64,000 nucleotides of DNA from a virus. The stretch's first letter is position 1. Every line of letters begins with the position of its first letter. A program made the position numbers and the translations under genes. Below are positions 10,151 through 41,795 of the stretch, piece after piece. The DNA lies in the IMG/VR virus record IMGVR_UViG_3300020442_000007, positions 1 to 64,000 of that record; one strand, given 5' to 3'. The notes beneath the pieces are model-generated. The model was not told the DNA's origin, ran no database searches, and saw nothing but the letters and a program-made list of their open reading frames with translations.

Positions 10151-10169
10151 AAGATAGGAGAGATCATTA

Positions 10170-10962: not shown

Positions 10963-10965
10963 TAT
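10937..10965 (+). promoter_or_regulatory. Sigma70-type early/middle promoter
   Basis: TTGACA-17-TAATAT before the DnaE fragment. Confidence 0.6.
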
Positions 10966-10971
10966 ATAAAG

Positions 10972-11493: not shown

Positions 11494-11521
11494 GTAAGTA
11501 TATAACTAAGGAGGTATTATT

Positions 11522-11920: not shown

Positions 11921-11922
11921 AA

Positions 11923-12354: not shown

Positions 12355-12366
12355 TAGGAGGAATTA

Positions 12367-12777: not shown

Positions 12778-12780
12778 GGG

Positions 12781-13305
12781 ATGCTCACACCCGGAGAGAT
12801 ATATAATCTGTTTGGTGATGTGTTTGCTTTAGATCTGTATGCACCTGAAGAACCTTTAATTGAATCTTTAGTAATAGAAAAAAGATATGTAGATTCTATG
12901 GGAAACAAAACAGTCTACAAATATAAAGAAGCTCCTGAATCTTGGAACTTAAAAGGAAAAGTTTCTAAGCCTATTAGAGTGGAACACCAACTTGGAAGTT
13001 TTTTTGCTCCGCATAAAGATCATATCAAAGACGGTGCTAATGAAAGATTAATTAGACTAAATTGTCATTCTGATTATACACACCCAGAAGACTGTACATA
13101 CATAATTGATGGTAAAATACAACATTGGCGTAAAGGACAGTGGATGGTTATGAATCCAAATAAAACACATTATAGTATGTGCTTTGCAGACAAAGCAGTT
13201 CATTATGTAGCAGACTTAGATATTTCAGATAAAGCAACATATGAATGGTTTATGGAATCAATCGAGCATAGGGAAAAAGTCGGAGACAGACAAGGCACCA
13301 AATGA
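12781..13305 (+). CDS. 2OG-Fe(II) oxygenase (Asp/Asn beta-hydroxylase-like)
   Basis: PHKD (HxD) ... WRKGQ...KTH distal His. Confidence 0.6.
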   Translation: MLTPGEIYNLFGDVFALDLYAPEEPLIESLVIEKRYVDSMGNKTVYKYKEAPESWNLKGKVSKPIRVEHQLGSFFAPHKDHIKDGANERLIRLNCHSDYTHPEDCTYIIDGKIQHWRKGQWMVMNPNKTHYSMCFADKAVHYVADLDISDKATYEWFMESIEHREKVGDRQGTK

Positions 13306-14021
13306 AATTTTTAACAATTTTAACTTTCATGAGTGGTGCAGGCGGCCATGGAATAGCAAGAACTTTATTTGAAAATGATCCACAATATCGATGGTACGAC
13401 CACCCAAAAAATAATAAGTCACACAAAAAAAAATTTTCCAAATTAAACATTGCAGAAAAACATTTTCAAAAAATATTTGCTGATGGACAAAGGTTCCCTC
13501 ATTTATTTGATAGAATTGAACCTTATCTAAATGATTTGGAAGCATATTACAAATTAATAGAACCAGAAATTAAAAAATGTTCTAACGGCAAAAGATTAGT
13601 GTATACTTGCCATACGAGTCCTAAAGATATTAGAGAAAGGTATCCTAATTGTTATATTATACAAATTCTTCCAACAGAAGATGTTCGTTTGCAATATTTT
13701 GATAGACATATGGAAACAGCAATGTTCTTTCCATTACAAACTAATATTGATACATTGCCAAGACGGAAAGAATTATTAAATGACTTATATTGGACACAAA
13801 AAGAATTTGTTACGTTGTATCCTCAAAAAAATTCTTTAGTAGAATTTTATAAGCATAAAGGTTATTCAAAAGACCAAATTTACAATACAGAATATGCTAA
13901 CCAAAATGAACTATATAGAATACATCAAAATGACAAACAATTTTCGGACAAAACAATACAATTTTCCTCATTAGAAGATCTAAATTCCCAAGTGCAAAAT
14001 TTAGCCGAAAAAAAAACTTGA
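13302..14021 (+). CDS. Hypothetical protein, possible P-loop/sulfotransferase-like fold
   Basis: N-terminal hydrophobic strand followed by SGAGGH; ATGA-coupled to the oxygenase. Confidence 0.4.
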   Translation: MKFLTILTFMSGAGGHGIARTLFENDPQYRWYDHPKNNKSHKKKFSKLNIAEKHFQKIFADGQRFPHLFDRIEPYLNDLEAYYKLIEPEIKKCSNGKRLVYTCHTSPKDIRERYPNCYIIQILPTEDVRLQYFDRHMETAMFFPLQTNIDTLPRRKELLNDLYWTQKEFVTLYPQKNSLVEFYKHKGYSKDQIYNTEYANQNELYRIHQNDKQFSDKTIQFSSLEDLNSQVQNLAEKKT

Positions 14022-25053: not shown

Positions 25054-27291
25054 ATGGTAGAACCTAACGAAGAATTACAATTGGTTTTTGACAAAGCGAT
25101 TAAAGACGCTAAAAAGCTAAATCATGAATATGTAACACTAGAACATTTATTGTTTTCAATGCTTTGTTCTGAAAATTTTTACAATCTTCTAAAAGGATAT
25201 GGTTGTTTAATTGACGAGATGAAAACTAATTTGGAACATTACCTTAAGACTGGTTTGACTGAAATTACTTTAGAAAAAGGTTCGAAATATAAACCTAAAA
25301 AAACACAAACAGTAGAACGTGTTTTAAACAGGGCATTCACACAAGTTTTATTTGCAGGACGTCCACATATTACATTAGGAGATGTGTTATTAAGTATTCT
25401 TTCTGAAAAGAAATCACATGCGGCATTTTTCCTTGATCAAAGCGGAGTTGACAAGGATAAATTTGCAGAATATGTAACAGCAGAATTAGGACAAGATGAT
25501 GCTGAAAGTGCTAGTGCAAGTCAAAGAGCATTAAATGCATTTACAACAAATTTAAATGAGGAAGTGACTAGGAATAAAATCGACCCAGTGATAGGAAGAA
25601 TTGATGAACTTGAATCTATTTCTCTTGCATTAGGTAGACGAACAAAAAATAATGTTTTATTAGTAGGCGATCCTGGAGTAGGAAAAACAGCTATTGCTGA
25701 AGGTCTTGCATGGAATATTGTTAATAAAGCAGTTCCGGAATTCCTTAAGGAATATAATGTTTATATGTTAGATATTGGAGCCATGTTGGCTGGTTCAAAA
25801 TACAGAGGTGATTTCGAAGAAAGGTTCAAACTTGTTTTATCTGGGTTACGACGCAAAGGTAAAACAATTATGTTTATTGATGAAGCACACATGGTAAGTG
25901 GAGCAGGCACGGCAGGAGCAGGCGGTTCTAACGACTTAGCTAATATGCTGAAACCAGCCTTATCTAAAGGCACAATTAAAGTTGTTGCTTCTACCACATG
26001 GGAAGAATACCGTAAACACTTTGAAAGTGATCGTGCTTTGATGCGTAGATTTCAGCGTGTAGCAGTTGACGAACCAACTTCTTCAGTCACAAAAGATATT
26101 TTACAAGGGATTAAAAAATACTACGAGGATTATCACGGTACAGAAATTAGAGAAGACGCAATTGATGAAGCAATCAAATTGAGTGTTAAATATCAACCAG
26201 ATAAAAAATTACCAGACAAAGCAATTGACTTGATTGATCTTGCTTGTTCAAGATTCAATTTGAGCATGCCAGATAAAAAAGTAGTTACTGCAAGCCAAAT
26301 TCAATTTGAACTTTCAAAAGTTGTTAAAATTCCCGCAGAACAGGTGGCAGAAAGAGAAACAGAAAATTTAGTTAATTTAGAAAATAACATTAAAAAAGAA
26401 GTTTATGGACAGGATGAAGCTATTGTATCAATTGTTGACAAAATATTAATTGCTCAAGCTGGATTAAAAGCAGACGATAAACCAGTAGGTAGTTTTGTAT
26501 TTATGGGTCCTACTGGTACAGGTAAAACAGAAACCGCAAAACAACTAGCAAAACATCTTGGAGTAAATTTAGTAAGATTTGATATGAGTGAATATCAAGA
26601 AAGGCATAGTGTTGCTAAATTAATCGGTTCACCTCCTGGATATGTTGGTCATGAAGAAAAAGGCGGATTATTGATTGAAAAATTACAGGAAAATCCTAAC
26701 TGTGTATTACTTTTAGATGAAATTGAAAAAGCACATCCAGACGTATCCCAGCTATTATTACAAGTTATGGACAACGGAAAAATTACAGGTTCAAATGGTA
26801 AAGAAGCAGATGCAAGAAACTGTATATTAATTCTAACTACTAATTTAGGTTCTAAAGATGCCGAGAAAAACAATTTAGGTTTTGGTAGTGACTTAGAGAG
26901 AGTTTATGAAGATGCAGACTTGAAAAAATACTTTGCTCCTGAATTTAGGAACAGGCTTGATGCGACAATTACATTTGCTAAATTATCAAAAGAAACAATG
27001 ATGAAAATTGTAGGTAAGTTTCTATTAGCATTAAAAGATATGGTCAAAGATAAAAACATTAAAATTACTATTGCAGATGAAGCATTAGATTATCTAGTAG
27101 ACAAAGGATTTGACTCCAAGTTAGGTGCACGGCCTTTACAAAGAGTAATTGATCAAGATATAAAAAGACCACTTTCAAAAGAGTTACTTTTTGGCAATTT
27201 GAAAAACGGAGGTACTGTTCATATAGATGTAAAAGAGAATGAATTGGTATTTAAATCCAAGCCAGTGAAAAAGAAAGTAAGTACCCTTTGA
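25054..27291 (+). CDS. clpA: ClpA-like Hsp100 AAA+ chaperone
   Basis: Clp N domain, GDPGVGKT, GPTGTGKT, FDMSEY, GARPL; no ClpB middle coil; LGF loop. Confidence 0.92.
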   Translation: MVEPNEELQLVFDKAIKDAKKLNHEYVTLEHLLFSMLCSENFYNLLKGYGCLIDEMKTNLEHYLKTGLTEITLEKGSKYKPKKTQTVERVLNRAFTQVLFAGRPHITLGDVLLSILSEKKSHAAFFLDQSGVDKDKFAEYVTAELGQDDAESASASQRALNAFTTNLNEEVTRNKIDPVIGRIDELESISLALGRRTKNNVLLVGDPGVGKTAIAEGLAWNIVNKAVPEFLKEYNVYMLDIGAMLAGSKYRGDFEERFKLVLSGLRRKGKTIMFIDEAHMVSGAGTAGAGGSNDLANMLKPALSKGTIKVVASTTWEEYRKHFESDRALMRRFQRVAVDEPTSSVTKDILQGIKKYYEDYHGTEIREDAIDEAIKLSVKYQPDKKLPDKAIDLIDLACSRFNLSMPDKKVVTASQIQFELSKVVKIPAEQVAERETENLVNLENNIKKEVYGQDEAIVSIVDKILIAQAGLKADDKPVGSFVFMGPTGTGKTETAKQLAKHLGVNLVRFDMSEYQERHSVAKLIGSPPGYVGHEEKGGLLIEKLQENPNCVLLLDEIEKAHPDVSQLLLQVMDNGKITGSNGKEADARNCILILTTNLGSKDAEKNNLGFGSDLERVYEDADLKKYFAPEFRNRLDATITFAKLSKETMMKIVGKFLLALKDMVKDKNIKITIADEALDYLVDKGFDSKLGARPLQRVIDQDIKRPLSKELLFGNLKNGGTVHIDVKENELVFKSKPVKKKVSTL

Positions 27292-28408: not shown

Positions 28409-28422
28409 GGATAAATAATAGT

Positions 28423-28764
28423 ATGCCGAGTTATAGCGAAATAATACTATCAAATCAAGTTCATCCTGGAGACAGTACAAGTGAAACTGTTACTGGAACC
28501 AAGTTTAAAGGCGATGGATACTATGGTAGAGCAGATGGATTTCATACTGTTCAGTACAACGTATCTGGGTTCAGTGGAAATATAAAGATGCAAGGAACAC
28601 TTGCAACTAATCCTACTGACTCTGATTATTTCGATATTGCAGGCACAGAAAGCACAGGCTCTAATGGCTCATTTTTTAAAAATTTTACAGGAAATTATGT
28701 ATGGGTCAGAGCTGTAGTAACATATACAGATGGAACAGTACAAAGTATACTTTTAAATCATTAA
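28423..28764 (+). CDS. Hypothetical beta-rich (probably virion) protein
   Basis: Follows TAAATA box; KGDGYYG...FTGNYVWVRA. Confidence 0.6.
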   Translation: MPSYSEIILSNQVHPGDSTSETVTGTKFKGDGYYGRADGFHTVQYNVSGFSGNIKMQGTLATNPTDSDYFDIAGTESTGSNGSFFKNFTGNYVWVRAVVTYTDGTVQSILLNH

Positions 28765-28774: not shown

Positions 28775-31768
28775 ATGGAAAATTTTATAAGTGTGTCTAT
28801 TCCAAGCAGAACAGCAAAGAAAGCTGTATTATCGAAAATGATATCATCTGCCGGTGGACATCTACATGAAGGAGAACCAAATTATGGTATCTTTGAAGGT
28901 GATGATAAAAATATCATTTTAAAGTTAGAAATACCAAATCAAATGAATGCAAAAGATTCAGATATGGTAGCACATAACTTATCAGAAGATTTATTTAATT
29001 TAGGCTATAGTGATTTCGACATTGAAATAAGTTCCGATCCGCAAGAAGAAAATACTTTAGAAAGCACTGACTGGCATACCATCGATGAAGCACCTATACA
29101 AATAGTACAAATTGGTCCTAAAGGAGAGTATGTAAATTTCAACATAGACAAAAGTTTACCATCTATAGAAGTTATAGGCCCAACAGGAAAACCAAGAAGA
29201 ATTCATGGTACTCCTGCTCAGCTTGCAAAAGCACAAGCTGATTTAGAAAAAAAGGGCTCACAAATTACAAAGCCAATTAAAGCAAAAGGCGGTGTACAAG
29301 GTGTTACATTCAACAAAGATGGTAGTATGAAGAGAGACGGTGATGCCGCTGTTAAAAAAGATCCAAATTTAGTGCCAGATAAAAAGTCAGCACCAGGTGC
29401 GGAACCTGGAAGTAGAGACGCATTAATGGCTATTGTTAACCAATATGCAAAACAAGGTATGACCTTAGCAGATGTAGACGCTATGGAAAGAGCAGCTATT
29501 GCTTCTGAAACAAAATCAGCTCCTGACGATGCAAATATTTTAAGTAAAGCGTTTCAAGGATTTAAACGTTTTGCAAGAAATAAAGATTGGAGAGTAAAAT
29601 TTGTTTTAGCTAGTGCCGCAGAAAAAATGCAACTACCAGGATTATTTAATTCAAAAGGTAATTTTATTTACATGGCAGAAGACAGTCAGGGTGATGATGG
29701 GTTCGAACAAGGCGGACCATCTTCGGCTGCTGGAGCAAGTTTAGAGGACTATATGACTCTTGCTAAAGTAGGCTTAGTCCCAGCTAGTAAATTAGAAAAA
29801 ATACAAAAAGCATTTGCCAATCAACCCAAGAATATGGAAAAAGTAAATGCTATTGTTGCCGCACAAAAGGCAGCTACAAGCAAAACAGTTTCCGGCGATT
29901 TACCAGGTGATGGTAAAACAGATGCGGAAAGAAGTAGTGGCGCTGGTCAAGGTGTTGATACAGGCACTGATACAAATAAATTCGCTGACTTATCAAGAGC
30001 AGAAGCAAGTCAATTATTGTTTGACAAATTGAAACAACTTAGAGAATTAATACGTAATAATCCTGAACCACGCGGTGTTGTAGCAGAGAACAAAAAAATA
30101 CTAATGCGTAAACTGCACAATAACTTTATTTTTGAAGATGCGGCCGCAGACAAAGCTATTGCAGAACTTGTTGCAGATATTGAATTATTAATACCTAAAG
30201 TAAGTGATGCAAATGCCCGTATTGCAACACAGGCAGTTAGTAAAGCAAAGCCATATGTAAGACGACACAAAGCTGTGGCTAGTGCTACTGTTAAAAAAGA
30301 CAAAGAAAAACCAGCAACTGATAAAAAATCAGATGCAGACGACCCTGTAAAAAGATTAAACATTCCAGGTAATCCGTTAGCAGACTTTGCTAAATCAGGA
30401 AAAGGTGGATTAGCAAACGATCCAGATGAACAACTTGCAATAGATGAATTGCAAGCATTTTTAAATATTCCTGTAACAGGAAAATATGATCAAGCTACAA
30501 GAGATGCTGTATCTGCATACCAAAAAGCAAATGGCCTTAAGGTAGATGGAGATGCAGGACCAAATACAATAGCAAAAATGATGGGTGTAAATCCACAGGA
30601 TCTTACAGATCCTAATAGAAGTGATGCTAAAGCTAAATCTAAAGAAAAATCAGCTGCTGATCAACGTAAAGCAGATGCTAAGAAAGATTTACGAAATGGT
30701 GTTGCTCCACCAGAAGAACAAAAGCTAGAAGATGCTATCAAGTTTAACTGGAAGGGCAAAAGCTATTATGTAAGCACAACTAAAGTTGAAAAAAATGAAG
30801 CTAACAACAATATTGCTTGGGTATTTTACAAAGATGAAAAACTAACGCAAGGACAAAAAGTTGCTGTGCTAGGTTCACATTGGGAAGCTCAGTTAGAAAA
30901 AGAACTTCAAAGACGAGCTGAAGCAGGAAGTAAAAAAGCTAAAGAGGCTTTAGAAATAATCAATCCAGAAGGCACTGAACCTAAGTTCCAAGGAATGCAA
31001 ACAGGTGGTAGAGAAGATGGAGCTGCATATAAAGTTGTTACAGGAAGTGGTCAAGGTAGAAGGTTTACAACATTTGACAAAGACGGCAACAGAGTAGACG
31101 ATGGTCGCGGAGGCGGTCCTAACTTACCAAGCAAACAAGAATATGCAAAAAATAATCCTGTAGATGATACGGAAAAAGAACCAAAAATGCAAGCCAATCA
31201 AACTGGTGATGCTGACAAAAAAGATACAAAGACTGATACAGACGATGCAGGCCCACAGGATGATACAGAGAAAAAAGCTGACACAGATAAAAAAGATGAT
31301 ACAGATAAAAAAGATGGTGAAGCTGAAACACCTAAAATAGGCGGTAATCAGCTTAAAGCTATTCAAAAGAATGCACAATTACTGTATGATGCTGGAGATA
31401 TTTTGACTGGCACTGACGAGGATGCTGTTGCAAAAGTAATTAACAGAATTACTAATGTAGGTATTTACAATGCATTAGATAAAGAGTTTAAAGCTCTAGA
31501 AGATAACAAGAAAAAATTAAGCATGTTTGATTACTTGAAAAAAGAAATGTATGATGGCGTTACTGGTAGTGGCAAAGATTTTGATAGATATTTCCTTGCT
31601 ATACTTAGAAAGAAAGGTATTGCTCACACGCTACCAAAAGACATGTTACCTCGTAAAGGAAAACGTAGAGGCAAAAACGTTACATTAGGTGGTAGTTATA
31701 CAACTAAAAACTTTGGAGATTCATATGATGACAAAGGCAAATTTATAGTCAAAGGATCAAAAAAATGA
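28775..31768 (+). CDS. Large modular protein (putative internal head/ejection protein) with peptidoglycan-binding domain and annexin-like repeat
   Basis: TRDAVSAYQKANGLKVDGDAGPNT; AQLLYDAG..TGTDEDAV; K/D-rich linkers. Confidence 0.65.
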   Translation: MENFISVSIPSRTAKKAVLSKMISSAGGHLHEGEPNYGIFEGDDKNIILKLEIPNQMNAKDSDMVAHNLSEDLFNLGYSDFDIEISSDPQEENTLESTDWHTIDEAPIQIVQIGPKGEYVNFNIDKSLPSIEVIGPTGKPRRIHGTPAQLAKAQADLEKKGSQITKPIKAKGGVQGVTFNKDGSMKRDGDAAVKKDPNLVPDKKSAPGAEPGSRDALMAIVNQYAKQGMTLADVDAMERAAIASETKSAPDDANILSKAFQGFKRFARNKDWRVKFVLASAAEKMQLPGLFNSKGNFIYMAEDSQGDDGFEQGGPSSAAGASLEDYMTLAKVGLVPASKLEKIQKAFANQPKNMEKVNAIVAAQKAATSKTVSGDLPGDGKTDAERSSGAGQGVDTGTDTNKFADLSRAEASQLLFDKLKQLRELIRNNPEPRGVVAENKKILMRKLHNNFIFEDAAADKAIAELVADIELLIPKVSDANARIATQAVSKAKPYVRRHKAVASATVKKDKEKPATDKKSDADDPVKRLNIPGNPLADFAKSGKGGLANDPDEQLAIDELQAFLNIPVTGKYDQATRDAVSAYQKANGLKVDGDAGPNTIAKMMGVNPQDLTDPNRSDAKAKSKEKSAADQRKADAKKDLRNGVAPPEEQKLEDAIKFNWKGKSYYVSTTKVEKNEANNNIAWVFYKDEKLTQGQKVAVLGSHWEAQLEKELQRRAEAGSKKAKEALEIINPEGTEPKFQGMQTGGREDGAAYKVVTGSGQGRRFTTFDKDGNRVDDGRGGGPNLPSKQEYAKNNPVDDTEKEPKMQANQTGDADKKDTKTDTDDAGPQDDTEKKADTDKKDDTDKKDGEAETPKIGGNQLKAIQKNAQLLYDAGDILTGTDEDAVAKVINRITNVGIYNALDKEFKALEDNKKKLSMFDYLKKEMYDGVTGSGKDFDRYFLAILRKKGIAHTLPKDMLPRKGKRRGKNVTLGGSYTTKNFGDSYDDKGKFIVKGSKK
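31259..31312 (+). repeat. Three imperfect 18-bp coding tandem repeats (DDTEKK/ADTDKK/DDTDKK)
   Basis: gatgatacagagaaaaaa gctgacacagataaaaaa gatgatacagataaaaaa. Confidence 0.8.
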
Positions 31769-32346
31769 AAATCTTTGAAATTACAGAAGATAGGTCAACG
31801 GGCAGTTTAAATGAGTTCTCATATAAAGGTATGAAAACCGTAATGAAAAACGGTCGTAAAGTTTACGGGCACGAATTAACAAATAAACTTTGGGCGTCTG
31901 AACAGGATGCCCGAAGTGATTATTTTGCTAAGAAAACCGAAAAGGATATAACGGACACAAAAGACAGATTTTTAAAATTAATGCAAAAAGTTAATCCAAA
32001 AGCCGATGCTCATAAAGCATGGGTTAAGTATTCAAGTAATTTTGGTATGAATTTGAAAGCTCTAAAGGCAAGTTTAGATAAACAAGAAAAAGCAATGGGG
32101 CTACGTGAATTTGAAAAATTAACAACTTTCAAAGGCAAAAGCAGTGATGTACAAGACTTTAAAGAAGTTACTCCAGAAGAACTTAAAAAAAGATTAGGTG
32201 ATATTCTAGGAGCGTTGGGTGCAAGCGGTGCTTTACAAAATTTAGAAAAAAACTTCAATAAAATGTTGCAACAATTTAAAGGTGATATTGAAGTGATGGA
32301 TAAGATATTGCAGCAGAAAGAAGACGAGCTTGGGTTATCGATATGA
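31765..32346 (+). CDS. Putative internal head protein
   Basis: MKIFEITE leader; ATGA coupling. Confidence 0.55.
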   Translation: MKIFEITEDRSTGSLNEFSYKGMKTVMKNGRKVYGHELTNKLWASEQDARSDYFAKKTEKDITDTKDRFLKLMQKVNPKADAHKAWVKYSSNFGMNLKALKASLDKQEKAMGLREFEKLTTFKGKSSDVQDFKEVTPEELKKRLGDILGALGASGALQNLEKNFNKMLQQFKGDIEVMDKILQQKEDELGLSI

Positions 32347-32672
32347 GATTAAACGAATTCACAGACAAAGAAGAATTACCATTTGACGTAGTAGATGATA
32401 CACTTGTATTCATGCGTAATGATCCTGTCTTCTATCGCAAATATTATTATCCAGCAGTATGTGAACTTGCTGATTGCCAACGTGCAGGCAAAGATGCTGA
32501 CCCAAAAAAATATCTCACACCTATGATTGAAAAAGGTTGCGATGCATATGTTAAAAAATACAACGTAGGACGTAATTCAGAAGAAGTTTTCACAGCTGAA
32601 GACCGCACAAATCTCCTTCAAAAAATAAATGATGAAGAAACTGAAAATATTCGAAAAGGCGATTACACGTGA
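32343..32672 (+). CDS. Putative internal head protein
   Basis: MRLNEF leader; NDPVFYRKYYYP motif. Confidence 0.55.
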   Translation: MRLNEFTDKEELPFDVVDDTLVFMRNDPVFYRKYYYPAVCELADCQRAGKDADPKKYLTPMIEKGCDAYVKKYNVGRNSEEVFTAEDRTNLLQKINDEETENIRKGDYT

Positions 32673-33448
32673 AAATCTATGAAGTTACAGGCGCAAACAA
32701 AACAGCTTCTTTTGCACTAGGTAGATTAAATCCAGCAACTACCGGACACGAACTTCTTGTAAATGCAATAAAAAAAGAACAAGGTGACTCTTTCTTATTC
32801 CTTACTGATAGGGCGCCAAAGCTACCAAAAGATCCGTTAACATCAGAAGATAAATTAGACTGGGCTCGTAAGAGTTTCAATGGTATAAGTATTGGACTTG
32901 CAAAAAATGTTTTAATAGCTGCGGATAGATTATACAAACTTGGGTATAGAGATATTGTTTATTTAGAAGGTATAGATCCGGAAAAACCTTTTCCTTTATC
33001 AAAGCTAATTAAAGATTATAATGGTGTTAAGAAAGATCTACATGATTATAATTTTAATAGTATAAGAGTAGTACAACTTCCAAGAAATGCAAGTGCTGCA
33101 GATGCTAGTGGGATGAGTGCAAGTAAATTACGTCAAACAGTTATGGATAATAATTTAGAAGAATTTAAAGCAGGAGTTACACAAATAGCACAACCATATG
33201 CAGAAGATATGTTTAAAAAATTACAAGGCATAATGGGAGTTGATCCTGTAGAAGAAGGATTGTTAGATTTAATAAGTTTTTCAGGAAATGAAATGGAAGA
33301 AAAATACATTCCATTTGTTATAAAAAATGTTAGGAGATATGGTACTCAGAGAACTGAAAGATTGTTAGTTAAAAAATTTCCTAAAATTAAACCAGTAGAC
33401 GTAAAGAGAGCTATGAGACAAGCTCTAGATATTATGAACAAAGGCTAG
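32669..33448 (+). CDS. HIGH-superfamily nucleotidyltransferase (phage cytidyltransferase-like) with leader peptide
   Basis: GRLNPATTGH (HIGH-like) and MSASKLR (KMSKS-like) motifs; MKIYEV leader. Confidence 0.75.
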   Translation: MKIYEVTGANKTASFALGRLNPATTGHELLVNAIKKEQGDSFLFLTDRAPKLPKDPLTSEDKLDWARKSFNGISIGLAKNVLIAADRLYKLGYRDIVYLEGIDPEKPFPLSKLIKDYNGVKKDLHDYNFNSIRVVQLPRNASAADASGMSASKLRQTVMDNNLEEFKAGVTQIAQPYAEDMFKKLQGIMGVDPVEEGLLDLISFSGNEMEEKYIPFVIKNVRRYGTQRTERLLVKKFPKIKPVDVKRAMRQALDIMNKG

Positions 33449-33452
33449 ACAG

Positions 33453-33671
33453 ATGGATGAACTAGCATACATTAAAAAACTAGCTGGCGTAAATGAATTT
33501 AAAGGATACACAGAATACCAAATAGATGAAAATCCAAGTATTACAGCGGCAGGAATTAAAAAGAAAGAAAAGAAACTAGGGCTTAAACCAGGCGATCCAG
33601 ATTGGTTTAAATTATGGTTTAGTAAACCATACATGACAGGGGCAGTACAATTTAGAGGAAGAAAAAAATGA
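33453..33671 (+). CDS. Small hypothetical protein
   Basis: IKKLAGVNE...KPGDPDWFKLWF. Confidence 0.6.
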   Translation: MDELAYIKKLAGVNEFKGYTEYQIDENPSITAAGIKKKEKKLGLKPGDPDWFKLWFSKPYMTGAVQFRGRKK

Positions 33672-33907
33672 AAATGTTTCTAATAGTAATTGCAATGATA
33701 GCTAGTCCAGGTTCTAAGGATACGGATTTATATATAATACAAGAACCTAATTTCAAACAACCTCAACATTGTTTACAATTTGTTCAAATCAATACCCGTC
33801 CTTTAATTGAAAAAGCAAAATCTGTATACCCTACCCAAGAAGTTGAAAATATTTATTGTATTACTGAAGAAAAATTAAAGGTATTAATTAGCGGAACCAA
33901 GGCATGA
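33668..33907 (+). CDS. Hypothetical small secreted/membrane protein
   Basis: Hydrophobic N-terminus, two Cys, ATGA-coupled. Confidence 0.5.
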   Translation: MKMFLIVIAMIASPGSKDTDLYIIQEPNFKQPQHCLQFVQINTRPLIEKAKSVYPTQEVENIYCITEEKLKVLISGTKA

Positions 33908-36900
33908 AATTTAAAGACATAAAAGTTAAGGAATACGGCGTAGGTAGAATTACTAAACAAAATACTACCGCGGATGTAAAGCCTGGTGAAACTAAAAGAC
34001 AAGCTGCTAAATTTGGTTTCAAATTAGGTAAAGACGGAAGGCCGCCAACTCTAAGTAAAAAGGTCAAAGGATCTAAAACTAATGTTCTTTTTAACTTTGG
34101 TCTAGCAGAAACAAATAGAAAAAATAATCTTATCGATTTTGTAAATTTTTGTAAAGAACAATTACAATTAAAAAATAGTCCACCTATAAAATTTGTAAGT
34201 GATACAGAAGATACTACTTTTGGATATTTTGACAAAGATAACAAAAATATAGTTGTTCAAAATACTGGTAGGCATCAAATGGATGTGATGCGTACTGTTG
34301 CACATGAATTAATCCATTACAAGCAAGACCAAATGTTTAATAGAGAACTTGATGGAGAAGATGGAAGCCCAGACGAAAATCAAGCAAATGCATTGGCTGG
34401 AGTAATTTTAAGAAGATGGGGACAAAAAAATCCAACTTTATTCACCGAATCGGTTGACGAAGATACCCAAAGTAGTGTATACTTTACTAATATGCAGGAG
34501 CAGTTAGGAGAAATAGGAAAAACCACAGAAATTTATGTAGACATGGACGGAGTGTTAGCTGATTTCTTTGGAGAATGGACAAAGCTAATGAATGTAGATC
34601 ATTGGAGTCAAATTGATAACGATGGCTTATCCGGTGCTTTACAAAAAATTAGAGATACTGACGAGTTTTGGTTAAAGTTACCAATGCTTCCACAAGCAAA
34701 AGAATTACTTCAATTAATAAAAAATATAAAAGGTGAGTATAATATATGTTCTAGTCCCCTAGCAGATGATCCAAATTCGGAACCACACAAGAGACAATGG
34801 ATAAAAGATAACCTTGGATTCTTTCCTCCTAAGAATGTATATATTACACATGACAAAGCACAGTTTGCTAAAAATGTAGATGGCACACCCAACATACTAA
34901 TTGATGATTTTGGTAGGAATGTAAGACAATGGGAGTCTGCAGGTGGCATAGGCTTCAAATATAAAGACCATAAGTTCGAAAGAACTGCAAAACAATTACA
35001 AAAGCATATTGCAGAAAACAAATATTCTGATTTAGGACATAAAAAACCTAAGAACTTAAAAACTGATCTTAAGTTACCTAATGGTGACAAAAAAGTTTTA
35101 CGTGCAGACGATAAAGATCATATCAGAGGACTAGTTGTGAGAAGTAATGCTGATGGAAGTTACGATTCATATTACTGGTATAATGACCCTACAAGAAAAG
35201 TTCCTATAGAAATCACAATTGATGGCAAATCAGTTGCTAAAGATGCAAAAAATATTCATTGGAAGTTTCACCCTGAACTAAATGAAGAAAAAATGAGTAA
35301 AAAAGACCTAAAATCTGCTCATAAAACTGCTGATAAAATTTTAGATAAACCTAAGGCAAAAAAGTCTATTGCAAAATGGGCTAAGGACAAGGGAATGGAT
35401 CCCGAAGGTGCAGTATATGCAATAGCAACAAACATGCAAAAAAAGAAAAAAACAGAAACTTATTCAAGAGATGAGTTACCTCAGCTTAAATTAAAACAAT
35501 TAAAAGAAAAAAACTTTCCTTATAAGATTGTGCCTTTATCTTTGAAAAATATTATTCCTGTACAAAAAGAACGTATTAAAGAAAATTATAAAAAGCATCT
35601 AATTAATATACAAAAAGGTGTTTTCAATCCTATTGTTGTAGATAGTGAGAATAAAATAATAAATGGACATCATAGATATGATGTAATAAAACAAATTGGA
35701 ATGAAAGAAGTATCGGTGGTACAGGTTCCATTTACATTAGAAAGTTTATTAGAAAAGTTGGATCAAAAAAAAAATCTGAATGCTCTAATTACACCAAATC
35801 TAAAAAAACTACATAACATTTTTTCCAAAAATAAATTTGAAGTTCGTATAATTGGCGGAGCTGTTAGAGATATTGCACTAGGTAAACAACCTAAAGATAT
35901 TGATCTAGCAACAGATGCTACTCCTGATGAAATGATTGCTATGTTCGATAAGGCAGGTATTAGACACATTCCTACAGGTATAGAGCATGGAACAGTAACC
36001 GCAGTAATAGATAAAGAACCTTATGAAATTACAACTTTACGTGCAGACGTTGAAACTGATGGAAGAAGAGCAAAGGTAAAATTTGTAAGAAATTGGAAGG
36101 CAGATGCACAAAGAAGAGACTTAACTTATAATGCTATGAGTTTAGACTTTAATGGTAAAATATATGACTATTTTGATGGTATGAATGACTTACAAAATAA
36201 GGTAAGCAAGTTTGTAGGTGATCCTTCAGAACGTATTAAGGAAGACTATTTAAGAATTCTAAGATATTTGCGATTTCAAGGTAGACTTAATAAACCAAAA
36301 TGGGAAGAAGACACGACTACTGCTATCAAAAAAAATGTAAAAGGATTGAAAAATATTAGTGCTGAAAGAGTTTGGCAGGAAATGTCCAAAATTTTGTCTG
36401 GAGGAAATGTAAAAGAAATAGTTTCATACATGGATAAAACTGGAGTAGCAAAACAAATTAATTTGCCTACAAACAATGCAAAAAAATTAGTTGATAATGA
36501 CAATGAAATTATAAATTTAGCTAGATTAGTAGACAATGATGATCTTGCATTAAAATGGAAATTAAGTAAAGACGAACACACTACATTATTAACTCTTGTT
36601 AACAATAAGGACAAAAAACTTACACAAAAAGCGGCAGAAGATTTACTTGTAGATGGAAAAAATAAAGAAATATTAGCAAAACTTGCTGTGTTACAAGGAG
36701 ATCCAGAACTATCAAATTATATACTTAATTTTAATCCGCCGGTATTTCCAGTCACTGGTAATGACTTAATAGCTATGGGATATAAAAGCGGGCCTGAACT
36801 AGGTCAAACGCTTAACAAGGTCAAGTCTGCTTGGAAGCAAAGTAATTTTACAGCTAATAAAGATGATCTTTTACAAAATTTAAAAGAAGATATAAATCCA

Positions 36901-37458
36901 ACAATGCCAAATTTTGATTATGAATGGGGAGAAGCACAACGCTATCCTGAATTTGAAAAACTTGGTAAGGAAAAATGGATTGAGTTAGCTAAACAAGGAA
37001 AAATATTTACTTTAACAAAAAAAGATATTAGGGATATTCATAACACAGATGCTGGAGATATGGGTAGTTTTAAAAAATTAGAATTAGCAAAACAATTAAG
37101 AGTGTTAGATAAACTAAAAAAGGGCGAATATGAATTGCCTATAATTGCTATGTACAGCGACGGTTGGTTAGAATTAATCGGCGGTAACACTCGTCTTACT
37201 GCGATGATTGGCATGCAAGATCAAGCTAAGGTCTGGGTATTTAAAGTTCCTGATGAAGTTGCAAATTTAGCAGTTAATGAAAACTTTGCAGATGGTAAGA
37301 AAAAAGGTAAAAGTCGTCCAGGTAGAGTAAAACGTGCAGGAGCTAGTTGTAAAGGTTCTGTAACAAGCCTTAGAGCAAAGGCTAAAAAAGCAAGTGGCGA
37401 ACGTGCTAAGATGTATCATTGGTGTGCTAACATGAAGAGCGGCCGTAAAAAAGGTTAA
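33904..37458 (+). CDS. Multidomain polyprotein: zincin-like, HAD 5'(3')-nucleotidase, ParB-like, CCA-adding tRNA nucleotidyltransferase, second ParB-like, basic C-terminal module
   Basis: HELIH; YVDMDGVLADF...LIDD; INGHHR; GGAVRD/DIDLAT/RRDLTYNA/EDYLRILR; IGGNTR. Confidence 0.85.
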   Translation: MKFKDIKVKEYGVGRITKQNTTADVKPGETKRQAAKFGFKLGKDGRPPTLSKKVKGSKTNVLFNFGLAETNRKNNLIDFVNFCKEQLQLKNSPPIKFVSDTEDTTFGYFDKDNKNIVVQNTGRHQMDVMRTVAHELIHYKQDQMFNRELDGEDGSPDENQANALAGVILRRWGQKNPTLFTESVDEDTQSSVYFTNMQEQLGEIGKTTEIYVDMDGVLADFFGEWTKLMNVDHWSQIDNDGLSGALQKIRDTDEFWLKLPMLPQAKELLQLIKNIKGEYNICSSPLADDPNSEPHKRQWIKDNLGFFPPKNVYITHDKAQFAKNVDGTPNILIDDFGRNVRQWESAGGIGFKYKDHKFERTAKQLQKHIAENKYSDLGHKKPKNLKTDLKLPNGDKKVLRADDKDHIRGLVVRSNADGSYDSYYWYNDPTRKVPIEITIDGKSVAKDAKNIHWKFHPELNEEKMSKKDLKSAHKTADKILDKPKAKKSIAKWAKDKGMDPEGAVYAIATNMQKKKKTETYSRDELPQLKLKQLKEKNFPYKIVPLSLKNIIPVQKERIKENYKKHLINIQKGVFNPIVVDSENKIINGHHRYDVIKQIGMKEVSVVQVPFTLESLLEKLDQKKNLNALITPNLKKLHNIFSKNKFEVRIIGGAVRDIALGKQPKDIDLATDATPDEMIAMFDKAGIRHIPTGIEHGTVTAVIDKEPYEITTLRADVETDGRRAKVKFVRNWKADAQRRDLTYNAMSLDFNGKIYDYFDGMNDLQNKVSKFVGDPSERIKEDYLRILRYLRFQGRLNKPKWEEDTTTAIKKNVKGLKNISAERVWQEMSKILSGGNVKEIVSYMDKTGVAKQINLPTNNAKKLVDNDNEIINLARLVDNDDLALKWKLSKDEHTTLLTLVNNKDKKLTQKAAEDLLVDGKNKEILAKLAVLQGDPELSNYILNFNPPVFPVTGNDLIAMGYKSGPELGQTLNKVKSAWKQSNFTANKDDLLQNLKEDINPTMPNFDYEWGEAQRYPEFEKLGKEKWIELAKQGKIFTLTKKDIRDIHNTDAGDMGSFKKLELAKQLRVLDKLKKGEYELPIIAMYSDGWLELIGGNTRLTAMIGMQDQAKVWVFKVPDEVANLAVNENFADGKKKGKSRPGRVKRAGASCKGSVTSLRAKAKKASGERAKMYHWCANMKSGRKKG

Positions 37459-37499
37459 ACTATACTAAAATCAGCTAAATATTACGAGAGGGAATTGAT

Positions 37500-38417
37500 A
37501 TGAGATTCAGTGAAATAATAGCAGAAGATAGATTCAGAAAATTCAAACTGCAACGCAAAGGTTCTAAAGGTCCAGCAGTAAAAGAAATGCAAAAAATGCT
37601 TATTTCTTTAGGTTATTTAGACCCAACATGGACAAGTAAGCGTTCTGGTAAATCATTCCCTAGCGATGATGGAAATTTTGGCAATGGTACACTAAGAGCT
37701 GTAAAGGCATTCCAAGAAGCAGAAGGATTGAAAGTAGATGGATTAGTAGGCAAAAATACTATCAAAGCTATGATGAAACTTGCTGATCGAAAAGAAAAAG
37801 ATGAATTAGTTGCAAAAAAAGATGCATCAGTAGGTAAGTCTAAAGCTGAACTAGATACTATGATTAGCAAAGTTTTAAAGAAGAGAGAAGATAAAAAAAT
37901 TGCTGATCTTGTAGATCAAAAGATTAAAGGCAAAATGCGTAATCCAGATATGTACGATGATCTGAAAGCATTAATATCAGCCAAAGGTAGAGTAAGCGGA
38001 GAAGAATTTGGTAAACTAGCACGAGCTTACATAAACAAATCCCTTGCTAAGTATGTGCAAAAATTAGACTTTGCTGGAGCATTGGACTTTATGCTTCAGA
38101 AAACTACTATGTTACCGCCGGCAGAAAGAAAAGACGTTGTGCAACAAGTTATGGCGATGCGTAATGAAATATTAGCAGTCAAAAAAATGACTCCTGACCA
38201 AGCTGTTGCTAAACATGGAGATGAAAAACAAAAAGCCAAACTTGCAAAATTAAATAAAGAATTAGATATATTAAACAAAAGAGAAAAAGAAATAGATAAC
38301 AGAACATTAGACGGAGTACCTGTAGGACCAGAAGCCGAAAAAGATTTTCAAAATAAGGCAGGATTTAGAAATCCTTTTGATGCAGCGGCCGCAATGAAAG
38401 CAGGGAAAATCAAATGA
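37500..38417 (+). CDS. Putative internal head protein with peptidoglycan-binding domain
   Basis: MRFSEIIAE leader; GSKGPAVKEMQ...DGNFG..T..AVKAFQ...LKVDGLVG. Confidence 0.7.
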   Translation: MRFSEIIAEDRFRKFKLQRKGSKGPAVKEMQKMLISLGYLDPTWTSKRSGKSFPSDDGNFGNGTLRAVKAFQEAEGLKVDGLVGKNTIKAMMKLADRKEKDELVAKKDASVGKSKAELDTMISKVLKKREDKKIADLVDQKIKGKMRNPDMYDDLKALISAKGRVSGEEFGKLARAYINKSLAKYVQKLDFAGALDFMLQKTTMLPPAERKDVVQQVMAMRNEILAVKKMTPDQAVAKHGDEKQKAKLAKLNKELDILNKREKEIDNRTLDGVPVGPEAEKDFQNKAGFRNPFDAAAAMKAGKIK

Positions 38418-39088
38418 AATTAAGAGAAATTTACAAAGAGGAAATGGGCATAGGCGGCATAGGCAGTAGTATGATAGCTGTCGCTCCTGTTGGCGTAGGA
38501 GGTATGCAAAAACGTAATCCAGATGGTACTGCTAAAAATGCATTAGATCAAGATAGCTTGTTAGGTAGCACAAAGAAGAAAAAGAAGAAGAAAAAACTAA
38601 GTGAAAACGATATTTCAAAATTAAAAAGTTTAGAAAAAGAACTAAAATCAACTGAGAAAAAAATACAAGCAGGTGATGTAAATTACACAGATAAAGCAAC
38701 AATTGATTTATTTAATAAGACTGCTCATACTATTGCGTCTATAAATTTTGAGCAAATGGCTGTTAATATGTTTAAAAAATTTGTAGAACAAGTTGACCTT
38801 GGTATAAAACAAGGAAAATATAGTGCAGAAGATTTGCCAAAAATGCAAAAAGCTAGAGATGAAATGGCAGCACAAATTCCAACACTAGAAAAATATGCGG
38901 CAAAAGCTAAAGAAAGAATAGCAAAAAATAAAGGAAATGAAGTTGGAATGGAAGATATGAGGATGAACAGTAAAGGTAAACTACAATACGATACTCCTTA
39001 TAGTGACTTTCCTAATGATCTTGAAGATGATTTAGACAATTTAAAAGCAGAATTTGACGCTATGCTAAAACAAATGACGAAACAGTAA
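38414..39088 (+). CDS. Putative internal head protein with poly-Lys tract
   Basis: MKLREIYKEE leader; TKKKKKKKKLSE. Confidence 0.55.
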   Translation: MKLREIYKEEMGIGGIGSSMIAVAPVGVGGMQKRNPDGTAKNALDQDSLLGSTKKKKKKKKLSENDISKLKSLEKELKSTEKKIQAGDVNYTDKATIDLFNKTAHTIASINFEQMAVNMFKKFVEQVDLGIKQGKYSAEDLPKMQKARDEMAAQIPTLEKYAAKAKERIAKNKGNEVGMEDMRMNSKGKLQYDTPYSDFPNDLEDDLDNLKAEFDAMLKQMTKQ

Positions 39089-39119
39089 TGCATAAATACT
39101 GTATCAAGGAGAATTAAAA

Positions 39120-39674
39120 ATGGCCAAACAAAATAAAAAAGGTTCTTCGATTAAAGAAGGGTTAGCTGACCTTGCACAAGTCGCTGAACGTGATCACGAA
39201 GTGCAAATGGCTAGAGCACAATTATACAAACTAGCCAAATATTCTATTAAGTTACATGAAATGCTTAAAACAGTTACTGAGCAAGAAGGCTTAGAAGGCT
39301 GGGTACAAGCTAAGATTACAAAAGCATCTGATTATATGAGTAGCGTATATCACCACTTAGATTATGATATGAAATTTGCAGAAGATGGTGTAGCAGAAGG
39401 ACTCACAGTAGGTAAAGACAAAAAGAAAGTCAAAGAAGGTGATGGAATATATCACGATTGTGCGAAAAGTTTTAAACATCCTACATATGGTGAATGTAAA
39501 GTAATTCCAGGTGAACATACATTATATGAAGATGGTACAGTAACACATTACGATGCAACATTTAAAAGTTGTGGACAAGATTATATTGTTAGAAATGTTC
39601 CAGTTGAAAAAATGACAGACGTAGTATACGAAGGTCATCATCATGCGGCAAGAAAAAACAAAAAGAAAAAATAG
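39120..39674 (+). CDS. Two-module hypothetical phage protein
   Basis: DHEVQMAR...LEGWVQAKIT module, then HDCAK...HYD module; late box upstream. Confidence 0.6.
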   Translation: MAKQNKKGSSIKEGLADLAQVAERDHEVQMARAQLYKLAKYSIKLHEMLKTVTEQEGLEGWVQAKITKASDYMSSVYHHLDYDMKFAEDGVAEGLTVGKDKKKVKEGDGIYHDCAKSFKHPTYGECKVIPGEHTLYEDGTVTHYDATFKSCGQDYIVRNVPVEKMTDVVYEGHHHAARKNKKKK

Positions 39675-39686
39675 CAAGGATATAAG

Positions 39687-40274
39687 ATGTCAGATTTTTA
39701 CGATATAAGTGCAAAAATGAAAGACCTATTTCCTTCTAATGCAGAAGAAGATAGAGCTGCTCTTACAGCTATGGCCAATGCTCCAGTAAAAGAAGATGTC
39801 AAAGTAGATCATATTAACGAAAGTGTATCTGTAAAAAAAGGCAGTTTACCAATAGACTTAGATTTACAAAGTTTTTCAAAATTAGCAGGTATAAATGAAA
39901 AACAAAAAGACGCAGATCAAGTACGAGGTTCAGAACCAACACCAGCTATGTCCAAGCCAGGCGGCAACGAAACTCCGCATCCAATGAAAGACAGACTTGT
40001 AGGGGACAGTATAGAAAACGATGAAGAAAGCACAGAAGGTATAAGCATTGTGCCTACAGGCAAAGATCCAATGGCTGACTTACAAACACAACTTAAAAGA
40101 GGAATGGATTTAGTATCCCAAGGATCGGCAATGATTGAAGATGCACAATCTAAAATGAAAGAAATGATGTCTAAGTTGAGTATGGAAAGTAAACCAAGTG
40201 TTAAGACATCAAACGAGTCAACAATAAATTCAATTAAACAAGAATTATTAGCCAAATTAAAAGCGAGTAAGTGA
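39687..40274 (+). CDS. Hypothetical low-complexity protein (scaffold/internal protein candidate)
   Basis: KLAGINE and several I/S-N-E sites. Confidence 0.55.
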   Translation: MSDFYDISAKMKDLFPSNAEEDRAALTAMANAPVKEDVKVDHINESVSVKKGSLPIDLDLQSFSKLAGINEKQKDADQVRGSEPTPAMSKPGGNETPHPMKDRLVGDSIENDEESTEGISIVPTGKDPMADLQTQLKRGMDLVSQGSAMIEDAQSKMKEMMSKLSMESKPSVKTSNESTINSIKQELLAKLKASK

Positions 40275-41443
40275 TGCGAGTACTAGAAGTACTAGAAGAA
40301 ACACTTGTATTAGAAAATCCTGAATCTACGGATGACGAGATTAAGAAACTGCAACGTTTTGGAATATCTGCAGACAACATAGATGATTATAAAAAGAAAT
40401 CTACTCTAACAAAAAATTGGCAAACAACATCATTTAGTAAAGATGCTTGGTTCTTAATTTTTGCATTATCTAATAGCAATAGATATGCAGAAACACGCAT
40501 AGGAATCATAAAAAAGAATTTTGATTATTGGTATAAAAAATTAGTTGAGCAACCTAAACCAGACTATTCTATATCATTCTGGCTACAACAGGCATTGGCC
40601 CTTGCTAAATTACAATTAGTTTCTTCAAGTGCAGAAGATATTGTTACAGAATTAATAGGAAGAGTGCAGAATGTGTTAGGTATCACTATTGGTCCTGCTT
40701 GGCAAGCGGATGGCACAAGTGTAAAAAATATTAAAGAGCCATACAAAGATTTTTATGCAAGATTTTTACAAATACTAGGTGCGGCACCTCAAGATTATAA
40801 CTTTGGTAAAGATCCAACAGACCCAGTTGATCAGACAGATATAGACAAAGAGATTCCTCCGTATTCAGTCAAAGAAGCGAATCAAATTGCGGCTAGGTTA
40901 GAAGATGCATTAGATGGTGCATGGAGTGTCTCCCAATTATACAATTGGAGTGCTGATTTTGATGATGATGAAGTGCTAAGTATTTTATTAACAATTAAGT
41001 CTAACACCAATTGGGATCTTGTGCAAAAATCATATAAAGAATTATATGACGAAGATCTTATAGAAGAAATAAAAGACGAACTTGGTCCTAAAAGTATAGC
41101 AACTTTAAATAAACACTTAGTTGGAATAAAAGCAAAAAGTTTAGATCCAAAAAGCATCACTTCATATTCTGACAAACGTGATGGCTATGTAGTTGAATCT
41201 CCACAAGAATTGCTCAAAATAATCAAAGGATTTGAAGAGTACTTTTTCAAACAAGAACCAAAATACAAAAAATTTGCTGAGTCAAAAAGTGGTAAATCTG
41301 CACATCTTGCATTTAGCAAAAATATGTTAGATGAAATGAAAAAGCAGTTCAAAAAAGACAACAGGATTACTGTACGTGATATAAAAAGAATTTTTGCCAA
41401 ACATCGTGACGGTTTTAAGAAAACTGCTGATAATCTCTTATAA
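40271..41443 (+). CDS. Putative internal head protein with annexin-like repeat
   Basis: MRVLEVLEE leader; AARLEDALDG...DDEVLSILL..SN...YKELYDEDLIEEIKDELG. Confidence 0.6.
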   Translation: MMRVLEVLEETLVLENPESTDDEIKKLQRFGISADNIDDYKKKSTLTKNWQTTSFSKDAWFLIFALSNSNRYAETRIGIIKKNFDYWYKKLVEQPKPDYSISFWLQQALALAKLQLVSSSAEDIVTELIGRVQNVLGITIGPAWQADGTSVKNIKEPYKDFYARFLQILGAAPQDYNFGKDPTDPVDQTDIDKEIPPYSVKEANQIAARLEDALDGAWSVSQLYNWSADFDDDEVLSILLTIKSNTNWDLVQKSYKELYDEDLIEEIKDELGPKSIATLNKHLVGIKAKSLDPKSITSYSDKRDGYVVESPQELLKIIKGFEEYFFKQEPKYKKFAESKSGKSAHLAFSKNMLDEMKKQFKKDNRITVRDIKRIFAKHRDGFKKTADNLL

Positions 41444-41475: not shown

Positions 41476-41504
41476 TTGACTTTCTGTTAAGTATCTAGTA
41501 TAAT
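41476..41504 (+). promoter_or_regulatory. Sigma70-type promoter
   Basis: TTGACT-17-TATAAT before the DsbA-like/polymerase operon. Confidence 0.85.
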
Positions 41505-41534: not shown

Positions 41535-41795
41535 ATGAGTGACCGTACCTATGGCGTAGAAGAAAAAGCCAAATTAGAAAGGCTTGTTAACGAAGGTGTT
41601 ACTGTTCTTCAAGAGATTGAAGATTTAAATGAAGGACTCAAAGATACTGTGAAAGCAGTAGCTGAAGAGTTAAATATTAAACCAAGTTTAATTAATAAAG
41701 CAATTAAGATTGCACAAAAAGGTGATTGGGCCGCACATGCTGATGCGTTTGATGATCTTGAAACACTAGTTGTAACTGTTGGCAAGGACAAGTAA
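41535..41795 (+). CDS. Small dsDNA-binding protein (T4 DsbA/GapR-like)
   Basis: Helical EIEDLNEGLKDTVKAVAEELNIKPSLINKAIKIA; upstream of the polymerase behind a sigma70 promoter. Confidence 0.65.
   Translation: MSDRTYGVEEKAKLERLVNEGVTVLQEIEDLNEGLKDTVKAVAEELNIKPSLINKAIKIAQKGDWAAHADAFDDLETLVVTVGKDK

Follow-up and report, generated by a model that had tools for sequence, protein, structure and literature searches.

We examine here a block of twelve genes at positions 28775-41443 of a 64,000-nucleotide stretch of viral DNA (hereafter the window), many of whose products begin with a similar short N-terminal peptide, the leader. This stretch makes up the first 64 kb of an uncultured viral record (IMG/VR record IMGVR_UViG_3300020442_000007; 165,479 bp, estimated to be ~47% complete). 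The DNA polymerase of this record has 50% identity to that of Sinorhizobium phage Phosso, 45% to that of Atu_ph07 and ~43% to those of the PBECO4/RaK2-like giant phages, and its major capsid protein (MCP) has 66-70% identity to those of Vibrio phage 2.275.O, Phosso and Serratia phage BF; judged by these two relationships, we assign the record to a giant T4-related myovirus, of which it is a fragment. An original prediction had taken the block for a dedicated locus of injected cargo proteins whose bodies are unrelated and which share a single address label, a capsid-targeting leader like that of the T4 internal proteins. The genes of the block, which we call the slot, and the two conserved anchor genes that flank it are as follows.

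28423..28764, plus strand: upstream anchor gene, 113 amino acids (aa), virion-structural-like, without the leader; phrog_13657 (1.6e-15) and phrog_14467 'virion structural protein' (4.5e-08)
28775..31768, plus strand: first slot gene, 997 aa, without the leader; PG_binding_1 at residues 562-602
31765..32346, plus strand: candidate cargo gene, 193 aa, leader MKIFEITE; no family for the body; top score in the proteome with the position-specific scoring matrix (PSSM) described below
32343..32672, plus strand: candidate cargo gene, 109 aa, leader MRLNEFTD; helical-bundle body in an AlphaFold2 (AF2) model
32669..33448, plus strand: candidate cargo gene, 259 aa, GTG start, leader MKIYEVTG; cytidylyltransferase-like nucleotidyltransferase (phrog_3041, 5.6e-28)
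33453..33671, plus strand: LAG-motif protein, 72 aa, N-terminus MDELAYIKKLAGVNEFKGY; a scaffold-tail-like LAG motif in place of the leader
33668..33907, plus strand: untagged small protein, 79 aa, with a hydrophobic signal-like N-terminus
33904..37458, plus strand: candidate cargo fusion, 1184 aa, leader MKFKDIKVKE, multi-enzyme
37500..38417, plus strand: candidate cargo gene, 305 aa, leader MRFSEIIAE, with PG_binding_1 (1.1e-16) immediately after the leader
38414..39088, plus strand: candidate cargo gene, 224 aa, leader MKLREIYKEE; no family for the body; second-best PSSM score
39120..39674, plus strand: slot protein, 184 aa, degenerate leader MAKQNKKGSSIKEGL
39687..40274, plus strand: slot protein, 195 aa, with an internal ...SKLAGINE... 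motif; family kept in 29 relatives
40274..41443, plus strand: candidate cargo gene, 389 aa, leader MRVLEVLEE
41535..41795, plus strand: downstream anchor gene, 86 aa, DNA-binding or transcription-regulator-like (phrog_12534, 1.5e-18)

All seven of the leader N-termini quoted in the original prediction are found at the starts given there, that of 32669 being the GTG codon. A strict form of the leader, defined as ^M[KR][ILVFM]x[DE][ILVF], heads 7 of the 12 genes of the block versus none of the 163 remaining open reading frames (ORFs) of the record (Fisher p 9e-10). The label is common to the block only in this restricted sense, since five of its genes (28775, 33453, 33668, 39120 and 39687) lack it. 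Elsewhere in the proteome the strict pattern does not occur after any internal methionine, its expected frequency per methionine being ~0.0009. When the whole record is scanned with a PSSM built from relatives, the window leaders again rank at the top, six of them within the first nine of 52,145 proteome positions, and the strict matches are confined to the block. Two near-misses lie outside it, MQILEVT (a 461-aa protein at genome position 133916) and MILRELF (an 82-aa protein after the portal gene), each preceded by a late-type box. The leader motif is a real feature of this genome, far above chance.

The two anchors, which have 269 (28423, in IMG/VR) and 587 (41535) relatives and both of which have a homolog at the same position in Phosso (57% identical in the case of 41535), gave access to the same slot in hundreds of uncultured contigs, and 160 of these loci were analysed. 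The strict leader heads 94 of the 414 genes between the anchors, 168 of the 1129 on the slot side of loci with one anchor, and none of the 1926 outside. The original prediction would have suffered had the motif been equally frequent among early or metabolic genes; it is absent both from these flanks and from the rest of the record. With a relaxed definition, in which the PSSM threshold is the 99th percentile of the flank genes, the tagged fraction becomes 136 of 322 unique slot genes, and a typical slot has a tag on four of its 11 genes. The position profile of the slot leaders reads M-[KR]-[LIF]-x-[ED]-[LIF]-x-E, and a consensus of about nine residues, M-[KR]-h-x-[ED]-h-x-(x)-E (h, hydrophobic; x, any residue), describes the leader on most slot proteins. 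The bodies behind it are indeed unrelated, as had been claimed: the 177 unique proteins with a strict leader form 23 superfamilies by single linkage (63 clusters when 60% mutual coverage is required), so that at least 23 superfamilies share the leader. A Pfam search with 20 cargo representatives returned only NT5C, DUF6267 and a marginal annexin match, most being without a known family, and the remaining window cargo gave nothing in Pfam. By megablast the 28775-41443 block has no match among cultured phages, and in tblastn searches with the 1184-aa and 305-aa proteins the cultured homologs are single-domain only.

The leader behaves as a separable peptide. It occupies residues 1-9, the extreme N-terminus, and in family alignments it is conserved (top-residue frequency 0.6-0.9) and followed first by a length-variable linker (0.0-0.13 in several families) and then by a conserved body. 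The alignment of the 32343 family (A1, 19 members) has a conserved leader and a conserved body, joined by a linker in which 0-29 residues are inserted. This family was modelled with AF2 (mean predicted local distance difference test, pLDDT, 78): the body is a confident helical bundle, residues 1-8 are disordered, outside the fold and the sole segment below 50, and a fold search with the model found no match at E 0.001 or better. In the orthologs of the closest relative the leaders are identical while the identity of the bodies descends to 29-47%; thus in locus L002 the 31765 ortholog keeps the leader with a body 47% identical, and for 40274 the leader is unchanged and the body identity only 29%. 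A second Glu at positions 7-11, which the search pattern did not require, is present in 73% of the leaders versus 23% of control N-termini, and the commonest residue after it is Ala.

The resemblance to the T4 capsid-targeting sequence (CTS) is close. A CTS of the T4 type is a peptide of 10-19 residues at the very N-terminus of proteins inside the head. In T4 this sequence is carried by IPI, IPII and IPIII (and Alt) and is removed by the prohead protease gp21 (Mullaney and Black 1996, reviewed in PMC9026906, PMC3012670, PMC5694885); all the internal head proteins enter the scaffolding core by means of it (PMC9026906, PMC5694885), residues 4 and 7 serve targeting, residues 8 and 10 serve processing, and gp21 cuts after L/I-X-E (PMC9026906). 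The T4 record reads MKTYQEFIAE for ipII and ipIII, as had been given for IPIII in the original prediction, and MKTFKEFTST for ipI, and its scaffold gp22 begins MLKEQLIAEA. After a one-residue drop (MKTYQEFIAE versus MR-YHEFITE), the leaders MRYHEFITE, MRFSEIIAE and MKIFEITE align with those of T4, and the T4 residues Y4, F7, I8 and E10 map to positions 3, 6, 7 and 8/9 of the slot leader, which are its conserved hydrophobics and Glu. This is similarity of sequence rather than proven homology. The MCP of the record has the sequence ...YLSE/AAG (the slash marks the cut) aligned with the known cut site of T4 gp23, ...LTEAE/IGG, and relatives keep it as ...YL[SA]E/[AST]A. The slot proteins are very probably trimmed by a protease of the gp21 type.

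The gene for this protease lies in a head module in T4 order: portal, the 82-aa protein, two more proteins (one very acidic), protease, scaffold and MCP, of which the portal, protease and MCP were identified by PHROGs.

142478-143104 (genome positions): gp21-type prohead protease; Peptidase_S77, 98 bits

The 82-aa protein occupies the position of gp67 and has the N-terminus MILRELFY both in this genome and in ~30 relatives, the same variant as stands at the head of many slot genes among relatives (MFLRELFE..., MLLRELYE...). In Vibrio phage 2.275.O the protein at the gp67 position begins MKLVELFE, which is the best-scoring N-terminus of that genome. The acidic protein (337 aa, genome 141445-142458), between the gp67-like gene and the protease, is extremely rich in Asp and Glu and recalls the acidic prohead core proteins of T4. 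The other near-miss, the 461-aa protein with MQILEVT (genome 133916-135301), belongs to no PHROG or Pfam family and is hydrophobic around residues 20-45; it could be one more tagged protein, encoded away from the slot.

A second link to the head module concerns proteins that lack the leader. The scaffold ends in ...DMKRLAGIK, and all of 80 related scaffolds end in ...D[IL][KR]RLAG[IL]. In the whole record this LAG motif occurs only in the scaffold tail and in two slot proteins, as KLAGVNE at residues 9-15 of 33453 and KLAGINE at residues 65-71 of 39687, both of which the original prediction had read correctly. Among relatives it is present in 32 of 322 slot proteins versus 5 of 1367 flank proteins; the slot matches belong to about four families and the flank matches are hydrophobic signal-like stretches. 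A LAG-motif protein is present in 36 of 37 slots. The copy of the scaffold tail probably constitutes a second docking route. In some relatives small genes like 33668 (MKTIAILLTG..., MKILAILITG...) come after the LAG-motif gene. The idea that the leader itself was copied from internal repeats of the scaffold (E[IV][AS]E[FL]xED[KR]K) was kept as a weak lead only, about 2% of composition-preserving shuffles being equal to the match.

The slot also has the promoter signature of a late unit, in so far as motif matches, on which all of the following promoter and timing results are based, can indicate it.

28411..28417, plus strand: late-type box ATAAATA, 6 nucleotides (nt) upstream of the 28423 gene
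37476..37481, plus strand: weak late-like box in a CTAAATA context before 37500, without the leading A of the usual NATAAATA
39092..39098, plus strand: late-type box ATAAATA before 39120
41476..41504, plus strand: sigma70-type promoter, TTGACT-N17-TATAAT, 11/12, at the end of the slot and the start of a DNA-binding-protein/DNA-polymerase unit

Two of the three late boxes attributed to the block hence stand, those at 28411 and 39092, and the third, at 37476, is the weaker CTAAATA. The box NATAAATA is rare, with 39 copies in the record, 23 of them no more than 60 nt upstream of a start on the same strand, and the genes so preceded include structural genes, 28423 at the head of the slot, 39120 inside it and both near-miss genes. 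The best sigma70-type sites between 24 and 43 kb, at 24983 (12/12) and 41476 (11/12), both flank the slot; as had been noticed, none that is convincing lies in the block, where the internal sites do not exceed the chance level of 10/12. In relatives the late box is kept in 40 of 52 distinct upstream regions and the downstream sigma70-type site in 50 of 58, and slots have late boxes ~2.4 times denser and sigma70-like sites ~2.3 times sparser than their flanks.

The most elaborate of the slot genes is 33904. Its 1184-aa product consists, in order, of the leader, an N-module, an HExxH-like region, an NT5C domain, a ParB-like domain, a CCA-adding enzyme, a second ParB-like domain and a basic C-module (in Pfam, PolyA_pol 9e-34, PolyA_pol_RNAbd 4e-12 and NT5C 1e-09; ParB-like PHROGs; a sub-threshold metallopeptidase). 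Relatives match it at the first ~70 and last ~60 residues only, the CCA-adding part being present in one or two.

33928..34113, plus strand: N-module, about residues 9-70, with the end ...NFGLAE
37282..37455, plus strand: basic C-module, residues 1127-1184, NFADGKKKGKSRPGRVK..., preceded by ...AVNE

The N-module is found in 59 proteins of 68-1216 aa; it ends nearly always in NLG[LM][ATS]E, and the sequences diverge after this point. The C-module ends 63 unique relative proteins of 65-1216 aa whose upstream parts are unrelated, and at its junction the residue before the putative cut is Glu in 62 of the 63, with V/I/M/L/F/A/Y two residues further upstream in 51. In one 122-aa relative only the leader, the N-module and the C-module remain, joined at the final Glu of the N-module, and in the shortest C-module proteins the junction is made by the terminal Glu of the leader itself (MLIFEITE/NFADG...). 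The 57-residue C-module recurs in 6139 public metagenomic protein clusters, its identity being typically 95-100% among the 120 top-scoring matches listed. The bodies that precede it there include methyltransferase, CCA-adding, ParB, flavodoxin-like, nucleotidyltransferase, GST and PAP2 domains; in the metagenomic proteins examined, Glu stands before the module in 116 of 116, the residue two positions upstream of it is mostly V/I/M/L/F, and 71 begin with the strict leader. Its AF2 model (pLDDT ~90) is a flexible basic (Lys/Arg) arm with a small helical unit, which had no Foldseek match, gave only generic helical hairpins in VIA-align (Z <4) and in Pfam only spurious OAR-motif matches. A Cys-free variant exists (NFADGKKPGRKGLAKR...), and zinc binding is therefore unlikely. 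Neither module has a match in cultured phages. The presence of h-x-E at module boundaries in three independent contexts is what would be expected of a polyprotein processed by a prohead protease.

From these observations we propose, with a probability of roughly 70%, that the interval between the 28423 gene and the early promoter at 41476 is a late, fast-changing cargo slot and that the leader is the T4-type CTS of this lineage. By analogy with T4, and as far as the sequences can indicate, the leader would dock each protein late in infection on the prohead core formed by the scaffold and the gp67-like protein, and the shell would then close around this core. The gp21-type protease would cut behind the terminal h-x-E of the leader and, in the multi-module proteins, at the internal h-x-E junctions; once matured, the proteins would remain in the head together with the DNA and accompany it into the host. 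Such packaging, cleavage and injection are what we infer for the slot proteins. The parts of the original prediction of one dedicated locus with a shared label that could be tested by sequence have held, namely the specificity of the leader, the unrelated bodies, its separable nature, the protease, the leader on a head-core protein and the late-type boxes. The slot also has more to it than a single label, with the LAG motif on some proteins and the N- and C-modules in one family.

A bolder version of this scheme, which we advance tentatively and would not expect to survive in full, has the slot encode a plug-in cargo cassette, in which any enzyme placed between the leader with its N-module and the C-module would be carried into the prohead and then released by the prohead protease at an h-x-E junction on either side. 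With the C-module riding on the DNA, the cargo would leave together with it, and the RLAG copy of the scaffold tail would be a second, independent loading route.

Several observations weigh against the cargo slot. About a quarter of the leaders have no nearby second Glu; h-x-E is a short motif, and the Glu before the C-module could belong to that module and not to a cut site. Windows within the scaffold repeats rank 6, 10 and 21 of the 52,145 positions of the PSSM scan, a result that is weak after correction for composition (P ~0.02). The count of 0/163 covers only ~47% of the genome, and leaders beyond the record are possible. Phosso keeps both anchors and a Clp gene, and its intervening genes are without such a leader; in the whole genome of Vibrio phage 2.275.O there are six scattered strict matches among 523 ORFs and no locus. 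The expanded slot is therefore a feature of the uncultured clade, and the virion proteomes of the nearest cultured relatives cannot inform on it.

Finally, the link of the tag to the head is one of sequence, which leaves some room for a leader that docks or sorts proteins to a site other than the head interior, be it the tail, the baseplate, the fibres, a membrane site or a replication compartment. The peptidoglycan-binding domains in two slot proteins are compatible with tail or lysis roles, and yet we judge such a destination unlikely, given that the same leader is found on the gp67-position protein inside the portal-protease-scaffold-MCP module, that it ends in the h-x-E motif of the protease, that the LAG motif copies the C-terminus of the scaffold, that the match to the experimentally defined CTS of T4 is close and that the leader has no hydrophobic signal-peptide character.

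Still less credible is a leader recognized by an enzyme or chaperone, either a ClpA/B-type AAA+ ATPase with a DnaJ-like partner or a modifying enzyme of the type that acts on ribosomally synthesized and post-translationally modified peptides (RiPP-like). What recommends it is the neighborhood, a 745-aa Clp-type ATPase (25054-27291; AAA_2 1.8e-55, ClpB_D2-small 5.5e-25) being encoded directly upstream of the slot and a DnaJ-like gene (N-terminus MDYYEILGV...) being located upstream at 24137. The Clp gene, however, has its own sigma70-type promoter and retains its place in Phosso, where the slot has no leaders; no modifying enzyme is conserved in the slot, and the leader on the gp67-like protein, the copy of the scaffold tail and the h-x-E junctions would all go unexplained. 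The Clp-type protein is a double AAA+ ATPase with a Clp_N domain, and the sigma70-type promoter upstream of it, at 24983, is a perfect one.

A shared N-terminus with no sorting role, imposed by translation initiation (ATGA coupling, A-rich early codons) or spread by recombined 5' ends, can be dismissed as highly improbable: the slot genes are tightly coupled and the ATGA-type overlaps at most leader genes do favor K/R at codon 2, but a start-overlap effect was rejected because among genes whose codon 2 begins with A the h-x-[DE]-h core is present in 2 of 526 flank versus 62 of 158 slot genes, the window leaders differ in their codons (third-position identity 0.49), 37500 carries a leader without any overlap, and such a reading accounts neither for the second Glu (positions 7-11) nor for the variable linkers and the junctions.

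Further features of single slot genes are as follows. In the protein of the first, 28775, the initial ~100 residues alone are common to its relatives, whose versions span 88 to 1077 aa; it has the appearance of a conserved N-domain with exchangeable C-terminal extensions. Relatives of the 32669 family have leaders of the MRLRELFEAP- or MRILEIVEAP- type. The 39120 protein has 77 relatives, many with an N-terminus of the form M[RK]xKE[IL]KEGL, and in L002 its body is fused behind an MNIRDLTEE leader. The true start of 40274 is the ATG at that position, which overlaps the stop of the preceding gene; its body has no family in Pfam or PHROG, and a search for related loci with this protein as query found none. 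The protein of 38414 has nine consecutive lysines, encoded by nine A-rich lysine codons, a possible slippage-prone site. Well beyond the window, in the tail/baseplate region, a single ORF of 5186 aa extends over genome positions 103287-118847 on the minus strand.

The orthologs of 37500 in L002-L005 have the N-termini MRFSEIIAE, MRYHEFITE or MRYYEFIKE. In L003-L005 (~4400-13700) this peptidoglycan-binding cargo is 77-79% identical to that of the window and lies amid other leader genes, in a context that differs from ours, with no slot anchors and with 770-aa and 550-aa genes adjoining. Such an arrangement suggests exchange between lineages, whether of cargo genes or of entire leader clusters.

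If the cargo slot is correctly read, the sequences reveal the same CTS logic in uncultured giant phages of aquatic habitats, a clade that is distant and very abundant. The protein and enzyme cargo injected by such a phage is then probably readable from its sequence, and the question of what a phage injects could be put to hundreds of uncultured genomes. Candidate counter-defence activities for the first minute of infection would be tRNA 3'-end repair, nucleotide dephosphorylation, nucleotidyl transfer and cell-wall binding. Should the plug-in cassette also prove true, the injected enzyme arsenal of this clade would become listable in the same way, and would comprise a CCA-adding tRNA-repair enzyme, a deoxynucleotidase, ParB-like nucleases, methyltransferases and nucleotidyltransferases. 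The leaders are also possible new protein-delivery tags.

The CTS of T4 is the textbook case of a virus that loads proteins for delivery to its next host. To our knowledge, loading of the CTS type has been experimentally established only in T4 (and in P1 for DarB) and is assumed for the close T-even relatives. The kind of system is thus already known from T4 and P1. What appears to be new here, in that we did not find it in the searchable literature, is the clade, the single-slot organization, the enzyme polyprotein cargo with its cut-site motifs, the widespread C-module and the copy of the scaffold tail; nor did our searches there find the NFADGK module described, or any CTS locus other than in the T-even phages and P1.

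As in T4, a short N-terminal peptide of similar sequence, with a hydrophobic-x-Glu end, is carried by otherwise unrelated proteins; there is a gp21-type protease gene and the order portal, gp67-like, protease, scaffold, MCP; the genes would be late, judged by their late-type boxes; and, as reviews describe for the T-even phages, the set of cargo is diverse and fast-changing with the tag alone conserved. Compared with that of T4, the leader is more degenerate and shorter by one residue. The cargo genes are gathered between conserved anchors, in a single dedicated slot of ~10-13 genes, and the giant phages that carry them form a distant clade (MCP identity to gp23 36% over the aligned core). The T4 cargo consists of small basic proteins, whereas large enzyme fusions occur here; a copy of the scaffold tail replaces the leader on some proteins, one family has conserved N- and C-modules flanked by cut-site motifs, and the system is predicted from sequence.

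Phage P1, compared by description, resembles the present case in that an N-terminal signal, of which the first 30 residues are sufficient, brings a large enzyme into the head, from which it is delivered to the host; P1 differs in having no separate scaffold, no short leader common to many proteins and a stepwise, Dar-dependent loading. In phiKZ, 201phi2-1 and SPN3US, ejection or inner-body proteins with propeptides are cut by gp21-homologous proteases at (S/A)-x-E (PMC5694885, PMC9026906). Their propeptides are mostly longer than 100 residues and belong to scattered paralog families with no short transferable leader defined, in contrast to those described here; but the paralogs can have identical N-termini and, as we propose for the slot, many proteins are loaded into the head of a giant phage and trimmed after Glu by a relative of gp21.

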